Below are positions 3,602-23,776 of a stretch of 64,000 nucleotides of DNA, in pieces. This stretch comes from Spirochaetota bacterium (lineage in GTDB: Bacteria; Spirochaetota; UBA4802; UB4802), in contig JAOAIH010000008.1 of NCBI GenBank assembly GCA_026414805.1, forward strand, positions 1 through 64,000. The letters are read 5' to 3'. The notes under the pieces are model-generated. The model was not told the DNA's origin. It searched no databases and saw only the letters and a list, made by a program, of their open reading frames with translations. Every line of letters starts with the position of its first letter. The stretch's first letter is position 1. The translations under genes were made by a program, and so were the position numbers.

Positions 3602-5443
3602 ATGCGCCCAAATCTTTTAGTGGATTCACGTGATGTAAGATTTATATTATTTGAAATGTTTGATATTTTACAACTTTCAAAGTTTGATATATATAAAGAT
3701 TTTGATAGGGATACGTATGAGTCAGTTCTGGATTTAGCTGAAACTATTGCGATGGAAGAGATATATCCCGCAAATACTATTGCAGATAAAGAAGGAATAA
3801 AATTTGATCCGGATACTCACACTGTTGTGGTGCCACAAGTTTTTAAAAAAGCGATGCATGCATTTAATGAAGCGGGATTTACAGGTATAGCACAACCAAT
3901 ATCAAGTGGTGGAATGGGGATGCCCGAACTTATGTACCGCATGGCACTGGAGTATTTTTTGGCAGCAAGTATTTCATTTACTATTTATATAACGTTGTCA
4001 AATGGTGCCACTAATCTTGTTCGCATTTTTGGCAATGAAGAACAAAAGCGCCTGTATTTGGGAAATATGGTAAGCGGTAAATGGGGCGGCACAATGTGTT
4101 TGACTGAACCGCAGGCGGGCTCAGATGTTGGAGCTATAAAAACAAAAGCATATCGACAAAGTGATGGTACCTATTCAATTAAGGGACAAAAGATATTCAT
4201 ATCTTCGGGGGAGAATGACCTGTACGAGAATATTATTCATATGGTATTGGCACGAATTGACGGTGACCCTGATGGTACCAAAGGTTTGTCCTTATTCCTT
4301 GTTCCTAAAATACTGGTCAATTCTGATGGAACTTTAGGAAAGCGAAACGATGTCATATGCACAGGTGTTGAACATAAAATGGGTATTAAAGCTTCCGCAA
4401 CCTGTACATTGAGTTTTGGGGATAATGATTGCTGTGTTGGATACCTGTTGGGGAATGAACGCGATGGCATCAAGAATATGTTTCACATGATGAACGAAGC
4501 TCGCCTTGACGTGGGGCTGGAAGGATTGGGTGTTTCAAGTGCAGCGTATATGCATGCTGTGCAGTATGCAAAGTTGCGAGTACAAGGCAAGACTATTTCT
4601 AAAAGTGAGCCAACAATCATAGGGCATCCAGATGTAAAGAGAATGCTTTTGTGGATGAAATCACATGTGGAAGCTATGCGAATGCTTGTTGCTCTTACTG
4701 CATTTAACATCGATATTTCAAGAACTCGGAATGACGAAATTGGAAAGAAAGCTCATGCTCTTGTTGAGTTTTTAATTCCTATCTGCAAGGCAGGGAATAC
4801 TGATTTATCGTGGTTAATTACTGCAGAGGCTGTTCAGGTATTTGGAGGGTATGGATATTGTGGTGATTATCCTGTAGAACAATATGCGCGTGATGCAAAG
4901 ATATTGTCAATATATGAAGGCACCAATGGCATTCAGTCAATTGATCTTGCAATGCGTAAAATTGTATCTGATGAAAAAAGGGAGCGTTATAATGCTTATA
5001 AGGAATATGCATACCAAGTTTTAAAAAATGCGGGGGCGATAGTACCTGATGCAATAATCAAAGAAATTGAAAAAGCAATCAAAGAAATGGATTCACTTAT
5101 TGGTATCATTGAAGGCAAAGATGCTTCGGCGGTATTAAGTATAGCAACTCCTTTGCAGCAGGCATTCAGAATACTGACACATGGAATTTTACATGTACAT
5201 TCAATGACCATTGCTATAAAGAAATTATCTTCGATTGTCAGAGAATATACATTGGGAGATGTTCCTGATGGTATAGACGATAACAATGAAGTAGCATTTT
5301 ATTATGGTAAAGTTCTTTCTGCACAATTTTTTCTAAATATGGAATTTCCAAAATATTATAGCCTGCTTGATAGCATCCGCAATGAGAATGGCATTGTCAT
5401 GAAAGCAAAGGCAGCAATTTTTACCGGAGTTCAGGAAGCATAA
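3602..5443 (+). CDS. acyl-CoA dehydrogenase, long (about 600 aa) FadE-like form
   Basis: ACAD middle and C-terminal motifs (CLTEPQAGSD, YEGTNGIQ) in a 613-aa protein with an extra C-terminal domain. Follows the thiolase with a GGGGGA RBS. Confidence 0.8.
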   Translation: MRPNLLVDSRDVRFILFEMFDILQLSKFDIYKDFDRDTYESVLDLAETIAMEEIYPANTIADKEGIKFDPDTHTVVVPQVFKKAMHAFNEAGFTGIAQPISSGGMGMPELMYRMALEYFLAASISFTIYITLSNGATNLVRIFGNEEQKRLYLGNMVSGKWGGTMCLTEPQAGSDVGAIKTKAYRQSDGTYSIKGQKIFISSGENDLYENIIHMVLARIDGDPDGTKGLSLFLVPKILVNSDGTLGKRNDVICTGVEHKMGIKASATCTLSFGDNDCCVGYLLGNERDGIKNMFHMMNEARLDVGLEGLGVSSAAYMHAVQYAKLRVQGKTISKSEPTIIGHPDVKRMLLWMKSHVEAMRMLVALTAFNIDISRTRNDEIGKKAHALVEFLIPICKAGNTDLSWLITAEAVQVFGGYGYCGDYPVEQYARDAKILSIYEGTNGIQSIDLAMRKIVSDEKRERYNAYKEYAYQVLKNAGAIVPDAIIKEIEKAIKEMDSLIGIIEGKDASAVLSIATPLQQAFRILTHGILHVHSMTIAIKKLSSIVREYTLGDVPDGIDDNNEVAFYYGKVLSAQFFLNMEFPKYYSLLDSIRNENGIVMKAKAAIFTGVQEA

Positions 5444-10607: not shown

Positions 10608-11933
10608 ATGGAACAAGAAACAATAGTAATAGCAGGATTGGGTTCGGCAGGGTATGCTGCGCTTGTTACGATAAAGCGTATTAATCCTAAAGCTCGTGTT
10701 GTTGTTATTGACCCTAAAGACAATGATATTGTTCATCCCTGTGGTTTGCCGTATGCGCTTGAGGGCATTGTAATTGATGAGCATCTCAAGCAGGATATTT
10801 TTTTGCACAGGATGAATGTTGAAAAGCGTAAGGGTATTGTGAAAAGTATTGATATTTCAAAAAAAGAAATTACTGTAGAGCAAGAAAATAGTAGTCATGT
10901 AGTTGCATACCAAAAAGCTATTTTGTGCACCGGTTACAGACCATTACTCCCGCCCATTATCAATGTTGAACAGTATATACACAATGGAGTATATACATTG
11001 AGCAGTCTATCCGATTTGCAAATGATAAAAAAGGAAATACATGAAAAAAAGCGGGCGATAGTTATTGGGGCAGGGGCTATAGGCCTTGAGGTTGCATATG
11101 CATTAAGAGTCTGTGGCATGGCTGTAACTGTAATTGAAGCAAAAGAAATTTTGTCACAAGCTGTTGATAGTGATATGGCTGAGATAGTAGAGCATTACTG
11201 TAGCAACCAAAGTATTCCCATTATAATGCATGCTCCAGTAACAGCATTGGAAAAGCATACGGAAGAATATATTGCAATAACTCCTGAAAAAGAATATACT
11301 GCCGACATTATCATTGTAGCTACCGGGTTTGCACCAAACTGTGATTGGGCTGTAAACTCTTCCCTTGCAACCAATAAAGATGGCGTAATAGTGAATGAAC
11401 ATCTGCAAGTACAACCGGATCTTTATGCTGCGGGAGATTGTATTAACAACTGGTCGGTTATAGATAAAAAGCCTTACCCGGTTAAATTGGCAACATCAGC
11501 ATATAAGCAGGGAATTGTTGCTGCTGAAAATGTTATGGGAATAAATTCTGTATATCGTGGTACTGCAGGCACATTTGTAACAAAAATAGGTGATCTGGAG
11601 ATTGCTGCAACAGGGTTTTCAACAAATGTTGCCAAGGAACGTGGCTTTTCTGTGATTGCAGGTAAAATTAGTGCTACAGTTAAACCAGAGTATTTTCCTA
11701 TCAATGAACGTTTGACTTTTAAAGTACTGTGTGATACAAATGGAAAACTTATAGGTGCTCAGGCCATAGGCCATGGTGCATCTGCGCGTATCAACATAGT
11801 AAGCCTTGCTATAGAATATGGATTAACTATTGACGAACTTATGCGTTTTGAAATGGCGTATTGCCCTGCGGTTAGCGAAGTGAATGATATTTTGTTTAAA
11901 GCCTGTGAGTTTGCAAAACGGAGACTGAAATGA
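10608..11933 (+). CDS. FAD-dependent pyridine nucleotide-disulfide oxidoreductase (NADH oxidase / CoA-disulfide reductase-like, single redox Cys)
   Basis: GLGSAGYAA FAD-binding fold, a single Cys in HPCGLPY (Nox/CoADR type), and a second Rossmann motif IVIGAGAIGLE. The stop overlaps the gcvT start (ATGA). Confidence 0.7.
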   Translation: MEQETIVIAGLGSAGYAALVTIKRINPKARVVVIDPKDNDIVHPCGLPYALEGIVIDEHLKQDIFLHRMNVEKRKGIVKSIDISKKEITVEQENSSHVVAYQKAILCTGYRPLLPPIINVEQYIHNGVYTLSSLSDLQMIKKEIHEKKRAIVIGAGAIGLEVAYALRVCGMAVTVIEAKEILSQAVDSDMAEIVEHYCSNQSIPIIMHAPVTALEKHTEEYIAITPEKEYTADIIIVATGFAPNCDWAVNSSLATNKDGVIVNEHLQVQPDLYAAGDCINNWSVIDKKPYPVKLATSAYKQGIVAAENVMGINSVYRGTAGTFVTKIGDLEIAATGFSTNVAKERGFSVIAGKISATVKPEYFPINERLTFKVLCDTNGKLIGAQAIGHGASARINIVSLAIEYGLTIDELMRFEMAYCPAVSEVNDILFKACEFAKRRLK

Positions 11934-13030
11934 ATGCTCAAAAAACCTTTCTGTATGAGGATCATATAAAATTAGGCGGTAAGATGGTTGAGTTTGCTGG
12001 ATGGGAATTGCCGGTGATGTATTCCTCAATTATTGAGGAGCATATGGCAGTGCGTCAGTCTGCGGGTTTATTTGATGTTTCACATATGGGTGAGATAGTT
12101 GTTAAAGGGAGAGGTGCACGGGCTGCTTTGCAAAGGCTTATCCCAACCGATATGGGAAGGCTTGAAAAAGGCAAGTCAATGTATACGTGCTTCCTGAATG
12201 AGCAGGGTGGTGTAATTGATGACCTCTTTATTTTTATGCTATCGGATAATGAATACTACCTGGTGGTAAATGCTGCCACAACCCAGAAGGATGTACAGTG
12301 GCTATTACAGAATTGCAAAACCAATGTTTCCATACAGGATGTTTCAGCCGCTACGGCTAAGATTGATCTGCAAGGTCCACAATCATATAATATTTTAAAA
12401 AAAATTATCAAAGATGACCGCTTAGAAGGGCTTGCACGATTTTATTTCTTTACTGGTACATATAAAGGTGAGCCAGTACTTATTTCACAAACGGGATACA
12501 CTGGTGAGTTTGGCTATGAGCTTTTCTGCATCAATAATGTGGCTTCACGGTTGTGGAATGATTTACTTGATGCAGGCAAGGAATATGGAATTAAACCTGT
12601 TGGCCTTGGTGCACGTGATACACTGCGCCTTGAAGCATCGTATTCGTTGTATGGGTATGAGCTAAGTGAAACTATATCACCAGTAGAAGGGGGTATTGGA
12701 TTTGTGGTGAGTGCACAGGCTGAGTATATTGCTAAAGATATCGTTGAAAAACAAAAAACCAGTGGTGCACCACGGCAAATAATATGCCTTGAAATGCTGG
12801 ATAAGGCAATTCCTAGAAGTGAATATAGAGTTTTGCATAATAATGAAGATATTGGATATATTACCAGTGGTGGTTTTTCACCACTTTTTAAAAAAGGCAT
12901 AGCTATGGCTCTTGTAAAAAGTGGCTTAGTATCAGTTGGGGATGAGGTGGCGATAGTTATCAGGGATAAAACAAGCCCTGCAAAGGTAGTACAAAGACCA
13001 TTTTACAAGTATACAGGCAAAAAGTTGTAA
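11930..13030 (+). CDS. gcvT: glycine cleavage system T protein (aminomethyltransferase)
   Basis: GcvT N-terminus KTFLYEDHIKLGGKMVEFAGWELPVMY and the GLFDVSHMG motif. 366 aa. Confidence 0.9.
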   Translation: MNAQKTFLYEDHIKLGGKMVEFAGWELPVMYSSIIEEHMAVRQSAGLFDVSHMGEIVVKGRGARAALQRLIPTDMGRLEKGKSMYTCFLNEQGGVIDDLFIFMLSDNEYYLVVNAATTQKDVQWLLQNCKTNVSIQDVSAATAKIDLQGPQSYNILKKIIKDDRLEGLARFYFFTGTYKGEPVLISQTGYTGEFGYELFCINNVASRLWNDLLDAGKEYGIKPVGLGARDTLRLEASYSLYGYELSETISPVEGGIGFVVSAQAEYIAKDIVEKQKTSGAPRQIICLEMLDKAIPRSEYRVLHNNEDIGYITSGGFSPLFKKGIAMALVKSGLVSVGDEVAIVIRDKTSPAKVVQRPFYKYTGKKL

Positions 13031-13120
13031 GGTTAGTATAATCAAAATGAATTGTCAATAGAGTGTTAATTATCACAAGGGGAGGTTTTGCAATTGCAAT
13101 ATTGAGGATGGCAACATCCT

Positions 13121-13494
13121 CTGTCATTATGAGAAGCGATATATTCCTTATATCGTATTGAAGAGTGCGGTACTCTCTTTTGTCGTATCAAGAAGCGTGG
13201 TACTCCCTCCTGTCATTTCGAGGAGCGAAGCGACGAGAAATCTTCACTTCACACAAGAGGAAAGATTTCTCATCCCGATAAATCGGGATTTGAAATGACA
13301 GAGTAGCAGAGAAGTGATTGGAAATGACAAGGTAGGAGACAAGGGATTGTAAATGACAAGGTAGGAGACAAGGGATTGTAAATGACATAGTAGCGAGTAA
13401 GGGACTACAAATGACAGAGTAAAAAGTAAAGAATTTGTAGTAACAGAGTAGCCAATAGTGATTTGAAATGGCAGGGTGATGATAATGTATTAGA
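13121..13494. repeat. composite repeat: about 4 reverse-orientation units (13121-13240), two perfect hairpins (13235-13289), then about 7 direct 29-bp units (13294-13494)
   Basis: Direct units such as aaatgacaaggtaggagacaagggattgt occur twice identically plus 5 degenerate copies. The upstream units (..gtactccctcctgtcattt..) are their reverse complements. Hairpin stems are gagaaatctt/aagatttctc (10 bp) and atcccgat/atcgggat (8 bp). Confidence 0.8.
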
Positions 13495-13535
13495 ACCAAA
13501 ACTTGAAATAAATACTTTTTTATAGGAGCATTACA

Positions 13536-13928
13536 ATGAGCACTATTCCTGAAAATCTAAAATACACTAAAACACATGAATGGGTTGAATTACAGGAAAA
13601 TTATACCTGCAAGTGTGGTATAACCGATCATGCACAGGAAATGTTAACAGATATTGTTTTTGTTGAATTGCCGGAAGTGGGCATTGAAGTGAAAGCGGGT
13701 GAGCAGGTTGCTGTGGTTGAGTCTGTAAAAGCAGTTAGCGATGTGTATGCGCCTGTGAGCGGAAGAATTGTTGAAGTGAATAAAACGCTGGAAGATTCCC
13801 CAGATTTAATAAACACTGACCCATATGGTGAAGGTTGGATTTTTGTAATTGATATGAAAGATAAAAATGAACTTGATGATCTTTTGGACGCAAATGCCTA
13901 TGCAGATCATGTAGCCTCAGGAGACTGA
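13536..13928 (+). CDS. gcvH: glycine cleavage system H protein
   Basis: Lipoyl-lysine motif VESVKAVSDVYAPVSG. 130 aa. Confidence 0.9.
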   Translation: MSTIPENLKYTKTHEWVELQENYTCKCGITDHAQEMLTDIVFVELPEVGIEVKAGEQVAVVESVKAVSDVYAPVSGRIVEVNKTLEDSPDLINTDPYGEGWIFVIDMKDKNELDDLLDANAYADHVASGD

Positions 13929-23713: not shown

Positions 23714-23739
23714 CTATTTTGAATATTTGCCTGAAAAAT

Positions 23740-23776
23740 AATCCCACGGTTGTTATAACGTGGGATTATTTTTTTA
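23740..23776. terminator. bidirectional rho-independent terminator between the secreted-protein gene (+) and amt (-)
   Basis: Perfect 9-bp stem aatcccacg/cgtgggatt with a 10-nt loop. An A-run on one flank and a T-run on the other. Confidence 0.7.

Follow-up and report, generated by a model that had tools for sequence, protein, structure and literature searches.

A gcvT-gcvH spacer in a Spirochaetota bacterium probably holds an orphan cluster of CGTC/TGTC-tagged REP hairpin repeats

Introduction

Short tagged hairpins that are scattered between bacterial genes have been grouped into a CGTC-tagged REP superfamily (Di Nocera, De Gregorio & Rocco 2013, BMC Genomics 14:522, PMC3733652). According to the sections of that paper drawn on here, a unit consists of an unpaired CGTC, TGTC or CCTC tag, an 8-9-bp stem that starts with A-T, a 4-5-nt loop and a short tail of 3 nt with the consensus CCA. 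The same sections describe the units as mostly arranged in head-to-head dimers and as present in five phyla, including the Spirochaetes, and name no dedicated transposase for them; in clusters, units are reiterated together with flanking DNA. The dRS3 and RPE-4/6 repeats are listed there as CGTC REPs, the elements of Neisseria and Wolbachia lie mostly in large clusters, and R. palustris and Bradyrhizobium are two of the hosts. Here we analyse a 64-kb stretch of DNA from a Spirochaetota bacterium (contig JAOAIH010000008.1, positions 1 to 64,000; referred to as the window), in which a 505-bp spacer separates the glycine-cleavage genes gcvT and gcvH. As we argue below, CGTC/TGTC-tagged REP hairpin repeats of the NTS/SRM type probably form an orphan cluster in this spacer, with a single intact head-to-head dimer as its core.

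The second system that comes close is that of the Neisseria NTS/dRS3 repeats and the related SRM, which are recognised by the GIY-YIG single-stranded DNA nuclease Ssn (Chenal et al. 2025, Nat Commun 16:2388, PMC11893778). NTS repeats (CGTCATTCCCGCGMAVGCGGGAATCYRG) and SRM flank ssnA, the gene for a 94-amino-acid GIY-YIG nuclease, and in Neisseria the NTS repeats are clustered non-randomly around genes. Ssn binds the hairpin only as single-stranded DNA and only on one strand, and no interaction of SsnA with the RNA form was found. For the homologues of Neisseria and Wolbachia, the C that follows the palindrome is needed for binding and the three upstream nucleotides for cutting, which takes place a few nt upstream, within the flank. 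As such, the association between GIY-YIG genes and repeats is already published in general form (PMC11893778).

Results

The repeat cluster between gcvT and gcvH

A first-pass annotation of the window had noted two perfect hairpins between opposed repeat arrays, and had left the element unassigned. Both hairpins were recovered in place: a 10-bp stem in which GAGAAATCTT (13235-13244) pairs with AAGATTTCTC (13262-13271), and an 8-bp stem formed by ATCCCGAT (13272-13279) and ATCGGGAT (13282-13289). They are parts of a single 90-nt palindromic element (13211-13300) with two inverted arms, each of which runs from a TGTC tag through a small hairpin to a trailing C. The tags lie on the outside of this core dimer, one at 13211-13214 (+ strand), the other at 13300-13297 (- strand). 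The arms pair with each other in the 10-bp hairpin, and the 8-bp one is formed inside the right arm alone and is also present in copies from Calditrichota, Smithella and Levyibacteriota; similar right arms were found in L015, L028 and L051 (L-numbers denote the contigs compared in this analysis and P-numbers denote proteins). A 31-mer from the left arm occurs only once in the window. The features of the locus are as follows.

11930-13030, + strand: gcvT (aminomethyltransferase), upstream flank (NCBIfam NF001567/TIGR00528, E = 2.6e-129)
13031-13535: gcvT-gcvH spacer, 505 bp
13031-13120, + strand: unique 5' part of the spacer, without tagged repeat (read from sequence)
13104-13121, + strand: small hairpin GAGGATG-GCAA-CATCCTC, abutting the first left unit and present in the minimum-free-energy fold
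13121-13210, + strand: left array of three truncated or degenerate tag-proximal units with a ~30-nt period, in left-arm direction (repeat search): cTGTCATTATGAGAAGCG.., ..TCGTATTGAAGAGTGCG.. and tTGTCGTATCAAGAAGCG...
13211-13244, + strand: left arm of the intact dimer, long form: TGTC, ATTTC-GA-G-GA-(GC GAA GC)-GA-C-GA-GAAAT, C
13245-13261: apical spacer of the dimer, variable among 83 family members
13262-13300, - strand: right arm, in - strand reading: TGTC, ATTTC-AA-(ATCCCGAT TT ATCGGGAT)-GA-GAAAT, C
13285-13486, - strand: right array of seven 29-nt units, the first overlapping the right arm, with tags outward
13487-13535, + strand: unique 3' part of the spacer, including the gcvH ribosome-binding site AGGAG (13524-13528) (read from sequence)
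13536-13928, + strand: gcvH, downstream flank (NCBIfam NF002270, E = 1.4e-55)

The 505-bp gap itself stands as first annotated, and the genes around it are ordered as chemoreceptor, CoA-disulfide-reductase-like gene, gcvT, spacer, gcvH, gcvPA, gcvPB, lipA and lplB. Set beside the CGTC REPs as the sections of PMC3733652 used here describe them, the element shares the tag, the A-T/T-A start of the stem, a tail that begins with C, the dimer with outside tags and the lack of an adjacent transposase, as well as an intergenic location and a distribution over many phyla that include the Spirochaetes. Like the NTS/SRM repeats, it is an oriented hairpin with GTC just upstream and a C right after the palindrome, and it belongs to a multi-copy family of many phyla. 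What had been left unassigned is thus assignable to the CGTC/TGTC-tagged REP repeats of the NTS/SRM type.

The right array begins inside the right arm. Tandem Repeats Finder places it at 13285-13421 with a period of 29, 4.7 copies, 83% matches and a score of 146, and a repeat search follows 5-6 copies at 29-nt spacing out to 13477. Read in register, the units start at 13285, 13314, 13343, 13372, 13401, 13430 and 13458, and successively match unit 3 at 23, 27, 29, 22, 19, 15 and 16 of 29 positions, such that identity decays outward and the outer units are the most decayed. This agrees with the earlier count of about seven tandem 29-bp units, two of which are identical: the 29-mer quoted at the time has exactly two copies in the window, at 13322 and 13351, in adjacent units. 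A right unit is composed of the last ~16 nt of the right arm (GGGATTKNAAATGACA) and ~13 nt of flank-derived filler. When sought elsewhere, the 29-nt unit was found neither at a further place in the window nor in the JGI metagenome contigs, which argues that it is not a dispersed unit and that the array grew locally; the subtype of the window's right arm has a single match in metagenomes, on the unrelated contig L141. Most right units between 13290 and 13425 also hold a mini-open reading frame (ORF) of two to three codons, ATG ACA (RRG) TAG/TAA, with GGAG ~15 nt upstream of it in the two identical units, and as the 29-nt period is not a multiple of three, the stops rotate through all three frames.

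The left array is weaker than the roughly four units that had been claimed. A left unit is made up of the first ~16 nt of the left arm and ~14 nt of filler. Two units are clearly related, those at 13121 and 13210 being alike at 16/19 positions (84%), and the unit at 13121 matches the core arm at 17/30 positions, where random 30-mers average 7.5 (sd 2.3; P(>=16) = 0.00075). The two middle units, with 70% mutual identity, are degenerate: 13180-13209 matches the core arm at ~16 of the first 24 positions by eye, and the other aligns only with a gap. The opposed orientation of the arrays holds, since CTCTGTCATT (13119) recurs as its exact reverse complement, AATGACAGAG, at 13294 and 13410, and the tags of both arrays face away from the core. 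Furthermore, the units abut head to tail with no spacers between them, which agrees with the earlier view that this is not a CRISPR array. The suggestion of an iteron-like protein-binding array is unlikely, as neither the hairpin nor the trailing C, both required for binding by the published nuclease, is present in the partial units, while that of a recombination-prone repeat tract is supported by the behaviour of the locus.

The opposed arrays can form a long imperfect hairpin, as had been proposed. As RNA, the entire spacer is more stably folded than shuffled versions of it (z = -4.3 for the + strand, -3.3 for the - strand). Folded as DNA, the 90-nt core reaches z = -5.0 and -4.9, and the right arm alone -8.8 kcal/mol (z = -3.3). 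Taken by themselves, the partial units on either side are hardly structured, if at all (z from +1.0 to -2.2).

The same spacer in close relatives

We compared the spacer among relatives whose GcvH is 80-85% identical. The window GcvH itself shows 100% identity to a protein of a 'Spirochaetes bacterium' metagenome-assembled genome; exact-protein look-ups with the window GcvH and GcvT returned no record, so that the comparison includes no strain of the same species. In L133, L136-140 and L007-12 the spacer is 68-81 bp long and free of the element, and in L005 it measures 96 bp and keeps only a remnant of the right arm. In L134/L135 (1366-1500) it is 134 bp long and holds an unrelated 12-bp hairpin, GTAAGGGCAAAT...ATTTGCCCTTAC. 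The same dimer, with three truncated left units, is present in the 238-bp spacer of L001/2/4. A different, canonical CGTC dimer occupies the spacer of L003 (L003 1-270, set against L001 3730-4010), namely CGTC-ATGCTGAA-CCTGA-TTCAGCAT-C with the inverted partner ATTCTGAG-TCAAG-CTCAGAAT-GAC; L003 and L001 encode identical GcvH proteins from gcvH genes with 96% DNA identity, yet carry different tagged repeats. In all relatives, GGAG stands at the same place in the position of the gcvH ribosome-binding site.

L133 can be aligned to the 3' portion of the L001 spacer and thus provides an empty site, and no target-site duplication is visible between the filled L001 and the empty L133. Because the element is absent, replaced or reduced to a remnant in relatives, these comparisons argue for an insertion and not for a conserved riboswitch or attenuator. 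The repeat units of the window are absent in close relatives and the spacer is not conserved, an outcome that the first-pass annotation had set as one that would refute its reading. With different tagged repeats in L001 and L003, the gcvT-gcvH spacer turns over quickly and looks like a hot spot. Outside the left arm, identity of the window element is 79% to a Calditrichota copy (L015 7605-7689) and 77% to the copy in the L001 spacer. At the level of sequence, this similarity suggests either horizontal spread or very strong constraint, and the copies of the window and L001 are not demonstrably orthologous.

These observations bear directly on whether the spacer could be a cis-regulatory RNA of the gcv operon, in the form of an attenuator, a processing site or a stability element that sets the gcvT:gcvH ratio. 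The + strand fold given above is compatible with this, and REPs in operons of E. coli can stabilise upstream mRNA or attenuate transcription (background cited in PMC6006769). Moreover, the gcvT end (TTGTAAGGTTAGTATAA, 13025-13041) shows 76% complementarity to the region of the gcvH ribosome-binding site and start (TTATAGGAGCATTACAA, 13520-13536), and the ends of the spacer pair in the minimum-free-energy fold, where they enclose the repeat cluster as one large domain. However, no Rfam family matches, in line with the earlier failure to see a glycine riboswitch: there is no gathering-score match in the whole window, and only chance-level matches at E <= 10 within 12950-13600. A promoter and terminator scan of the spacer found no + strand promoter and no intrinsic terminator. 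In addition, the element is variable in these relatives, its family occurs in all gene contexts without strand bias (see below), and the published SsnA ignores the RNA form of its target. We therefore regard a gcv regulatory RNA, which the first-pass annotation had listed among its options, as very unlikely. Hammerhead and other ribozymes, tRNA-like folds, attC and dif sites were dismissed by eye, as their core motifs are lacking, and literature searches with raw DNA strings and with peptides of spurious ORFs returned nothing.

The family across genomes

The family was scanned with the exact first 19 nt of the left end (GTCATTTCGAGGAGCGAAG), using one genome per species; the contig count is a lower bound. 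Exact copies of this 19-mer stand in at least 120 genome contigs, which represent about 15 bacterial phyla, among them Acidobacteriota, Chloroflexota, Calditrichota, Spirochaetota, Desulfobacterota, Bacillota, Planctomycetota, Verrucomicrobiota, Proteobacteria, Omnitrophota, Bacteroidota and groups of the candidate phyla radiation. Brocadia and Clostridia are also among the hosts, as are the cultured R. palustris, Bradyrhizobium and Chryseobacterium, the first two of which are shared with the CGTC REPs of PMC3733652. Among 2.9 million viral contigs, none contains the exact 19-mer, and there is thus no sign of phage carriage. The unit that recurs in relatives reads GTCATTTCGAGGAGCGAAGCGACGAGAAATCTT, a loop, AAGATTTCTC, a small hairpin and then TYGAAATGAC. 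A matching right end lies within 220 nt of the left end in 97 of 132 occurrences, and the imperfect palindromes that result are mostly 66-100 nt long, with a variable apical region; with 88 nt between its tags, the window copy is an ordinary family member. Head-to-head dimers ('><') are the commonest multi-unit pattern, with 92 cases. Individual genomes can hold several copies (at least nine contigs in JBBSHK01, five in CANQSR01).

For the structure of the single arm, an alignment was made of 20 distinct short arms, all read in the direction of their own tag strand. The pattern is GTC-ATTTC-GA-XC-GNA-GX'-GA-GAAAT-C, in which 96.4% of cells are paired and 13 cells are compensatory, values that none of 500 shuffles reach. 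GTC is invariant in all 20 arms, the A-T pair of the stem is kept in 20/20 and the T-A pair in 19/20. Of the two G-A pairs, the first does not vary, and at least 90% of arms keep the A of the second; the trailing C is likewise kept in at least 90%, and both arms of the window have retained tag, stem and C. The near-invariant GTC and the trailing C are the same positions that Ssn needs. Furthermore, right arms with ATTCC/GGAAT (7 cases) or ACTTC/GAAGT (3 cases) covary within the arm, with the partner arm staying ATTTC/GAAAT. This covariation within arms identifies the arm as the structural unit, and the element as a head-to-head pair of such units. An asymmetry between G-T and A-C, looked for as a sign of function at the RNA level, gave no signal.

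Relative to the flanking genes, 25 elements are co-oriented, 19 anti-oriented, 19 between convergent and 14 between divergent genes, which amounts to no orientation bias. ORF clustering of 120 loci revealed no recurrent transposase or other recurrent protein family near the copies, only generic families, and the ORFs between clusters are housekeeping genes. The GCGAAGC minihairpin had made RAYT/REPIN our first lead, which was dropped because the tag is not GTAG and no Y1 transposase lies near the copies. More generally, a miniature inverted-repeat transposable element of a DDE transposon, or a REPIN mobilised by a RAYT (Y1/HUH) transposase, would account for a palindromic, short and dispersed element, and the inverted units resemble the organisation of REPINs and BIMEs. 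E. coli REP/BIME and Pseudomonas REPIN-RAYT indeed share with the present family their short, tagged and inverted hairpins, their mosaics and their place as non-autonomous partners of one small, repeat-flanked gene for a nuclease that acts on single-stranded DNA. They differ in having a GTAG tag and a Y1/HUH transposase, where the present family has (C/T)GTC and GIY-YIG. With neither a Y1 nor a DDE transposase recurring near copies, no target-site duplication between L001 and L133, and a GIY-YIG gene as the recurrent neighbour (see below), such an origin is highly improbable. NIMEs and RPE-4/RPE-6 differ in their hairpin sequences, and RPEs often lie inside genes, where the window cluster is intergenic within an operon.

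The architecture of the window cluster is not unique either. Left arrays of the same kind were found in L001, L017, L046, L103, L116, L120 and L125, and an intact dimer with opposed, polar arrays of truncated tagged ends, at a locus-specific period of 20-32 nt, in L075, L125, L103, L060 and L101; the hosts of such recurring arrays are Deltaproteobacteria/Desulfobacterota including Smithella, Pseudomonadota and Clostridia. This bears on the notion of a plain minisatellite that arose in place by slippage, with no mobile element at its origin. The two adjacent identical units, the homogeneous 29-nt period and a unit unique to this locus would all fit such a history. However, the core belongs to a family found in at least 120 contigs of many phyla, which contradicts it, the units copy the tagged ends of that family, and the same architecture recurs in unrelated genomes, so that we give this explanation almost no credence.

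Several variations on the theme were observed along the way. Very large clusters, of up to 29 tagged ends, occur in L075 (1682-2595, 6401-6752) and L125 (119-419, 1065-1457, 4366-4550), where they bracket genes for glycosyltransferase, WbqC-like, GNAT and porin proteins; a similar remark, on repeat arrays around exopolysaccharide genes of Thauera, is made in the part of Di Nocera et al. (PMC3733652) used here. L048 (2900-3960) holds a permuted tail-to-tail pair (right arm, 18 nt, left arm) twice, 930 nt apart, flanking an ORF with the N-terminus MGKIIAICNQKGGVG in which we read a ParA-type Walker A motif. In L020, L030, L041, L044, L053, L056, L119, L121 and L132, mainly contigs of the Desulfobacterales and Syntrophales type, the dimer is nested in a longer, lineage-specific palindrome, CCCTACAACGTCACTTACC...AAGTGTCGTTGTAGGG, and L089, L112, L018 and L093 have outer inverted repeats of their own around the conserved core.

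Association with a GIY-YIG gene

Among the 120 loci there are four ORFs for a GIY-YIG protein of ~100 amino acids (Pfam PF01541), each within about 50 nt of a dimer or cluster. Further contigs (L142-L158) carry a GIY-YIG ORF between a left and a right arm of the ATTTC/GAAAT family, at the position that corresponds to the apical spacer of the window dimer. An identical 97-amino-acid GIY-YIG protein lies between arms in at least seven different genomic contexts (L149-L158), in a unit of ~0.42 kb (e.g. L149 1450-1900) that comprises GTAAGCGTTCACGCCCATATT, the left arm, the ORF, the right arm and ...GCGTGAACGGTTAC, and that has an additional outer inverted repeat. No target-site duplication is evident for this unit; L153 and L151 have the upstream flank in common and not the downstream flank. 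Judged by its sequence organisation, the ~0.42-kb unit looks like a very small autonomous mobile element. At the level of the family, though not in the window, arms thus flank a single-domain gene of ~95-106 codons on both sides in a layout like that of an insertion sequence, as the NTS/SRM repeats do. Since the same arms bracket a GIY-YIG gene elsewhere, the dimer without a gene is its miniature, non-autonomous form.

The C-terminus ...DFSLRSK is present in 16 of 30 sampled homologues, with variants of one or two residues in four more, and is the exact translation of a right arm, GAT TTC TCA CTG CGT TCG AAA TGA. Either the arm truly supplies the C-terminus and the stop, or the annotated genes extend into repeat sequence. 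Arms that lie upstream of the gene are translated in several over-extended gene calls, and some GIY-YIG proteins in databases (P0123-P0232) start with VISTSEARRNL, LSFRPTEKFF or RFLAALEMT, which are translated arms. NCBIfam and PDB searches with the GIY-YIG protein returned nothing, and there is no sequence-related solved structure.

With a nuclease in the picture, it could be that the window repeats are functional Ssn target sites in use by the host, at which a resident Ssn, encoded in another part of the genome, would cut single-stranded DNA and so modulate recombination or transformation around gcv, as has been described for NTS clusters of N. meningitidis. Both core arms keep the tag, stem and trailing C, all of which the published enzyme needs (PMC11893778), and the non-random clustering of NTS repeats around genes in Neisseria offers a precedent. 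However, there is no ssn gene in the 64 kb and only two arms are intact, whereas the ~10 flanking units are truncated copies without the 3' half of the hairpin and would by the published rules remain unbound. As the element is moreover lost or replaced in close relatives, we consider a role as host-used target site quite unlikely.

Discussion

In this study, we show how a structured spacer within a glycine-cleavage operon can be broken down into an intact head-to-head dimer of tagged hairpins and two outward-facing arrays of truncated arm ends. It is an already described kind of selfish hairpin repeat and not a dedicated gcv regulator. We propose that the dimer entered the gcvT-gcvH spacer by insertion, and that both arrays would then have arisen locally, through tandem reiteration, by slippage or unequal exchange, of a ~29-30-nt segment that spans the tag-proximal end of an arm and the adjacent flank. 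With no nuclease gene in the 64-kb window, the cluster would be a passive passenger, across which transcription probably continues so that it forms a structured segment of the gcv mRNA; if the gcvT:gcvH ratio is affected at all, this would be a by-product, and not a selected switch.

Several points weigh against placing the cluster among the CGTC/NTS repeats in this way. The published CGTC REPs have an 8-9-bp stem, where the present arms have five Watson-Crick pairs with conserved G-A mismatches, and in addition either a GNA triloop or a further hairpin. It is possible to read the short arm as a stem of eight positions, two of them G-A mismatches, with CGAAG as a 5-nt loop, whereas the long left arm (12 positions, GAA triloop) and the right arm of the window with its extra 8-bp hairpin fall outside the 8-9-bp/4-5-nt geometry. 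The fold of the long left arm, which is drawn by analogy with the short arms, is not favoured by nearest-neighbour folding when the arm is taken alone (z about 0). The window tail is CTT, where the consensus is CCA; alphaproteobacterial members do have CCA, as in ...GCAATCCAG. Clusters are called rare in the sections of PMC3733652 used here, and long polar arrays of truncated units would be unusual by that account; the comparison with the families CGTC-1 to CGTC-4 is one with their text descriptions. Furthermore, the SRM search motif, HGTCWYN(0-2)YYVSBRHN(0-5)WNVSBRGN(0-2)RNCYNB, which does match the NTS control, matches 0/83 dimers, nothing in the window and nothing in the L003 spacer. There is no Ssn-like ORF in the window, and the associated proteins of other genomes are typed by Pfam as PF01541 only, so that their placement in the Ssn clade (cd10448) and their activity are putative. 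Lastly, the window holds a single locus of the family, and multiple copies in the host genome can be judged only within these 64 kb. Units of the form 'GTCAT + hairpin' number three in the window, where shuffles have 2.95; one of them lies inside an ORF that we read as P-II-like and is a chance match. A relaxed match to the tag at 4726 lies apparently in coding sequence.

Slippage, moreover, leaves two features of the arrays without explanation, namely the constant anchor at the junction of tag and flank, and the pyrimidine-rich filler on the tag strand. In a different view, the ATTTC-GA...GNA...GA-GAAAT class would be a distinct, still-mobile lineage of the Ssn type, with the ~0.42-kb unit as its autonomous form and the arrays as footprints of cleavage and repair. 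The ends of this class, which the SRM motif misses, are nearly identical at the base level across about 15 phyla. The nuclease would cleave just upstream of the tag, and repair would then leave the truncated, tag-proximal fragments that point outward here and in other phyla. We hold this to be unlikely as it stands, albeit less so than the other alternatives. If true, footprint arrays would be a readable record of how CGTC REPs multiply.

Two further repeats were seen in the window, away from the cluster: a perfect 15-bp inverted repeat with a 10-nt loop at 23734-23773 (AAAAATAATCCCACG / CGTGGGATTATTTTT), which resembles a bidirectional terminator, and a 22-nt tandem repeat (AATGGTGTCAGAGCAATAAAAC, 2.3 copies) at the very start (48-98).

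What an orphan cluster of tagged REP repeats at this place means is, at the least, that a tempting false lead is removed: instead of a new riboswitch or another regulator of glycine cleavage, the spacer is selfish repeat DNA within an operon. The view of the gcv operon remains unchanged, unless 505 nt of structured RNA were to measurably alter the stoichiometry of gcvT and gcvH. For the family, the consequences are wider. As the published SRM pattern misses this class, Ssn-associated repeats are probably under-counted. The range of the class covers many phyla beyond the five known for CGTC REPs and takes in bacteria of the candidate phyla radiation. The polar arrays of truncated units, together with a ~0.42-kb unit in several contexts, bear on how CGTC/NTS repeats spread.

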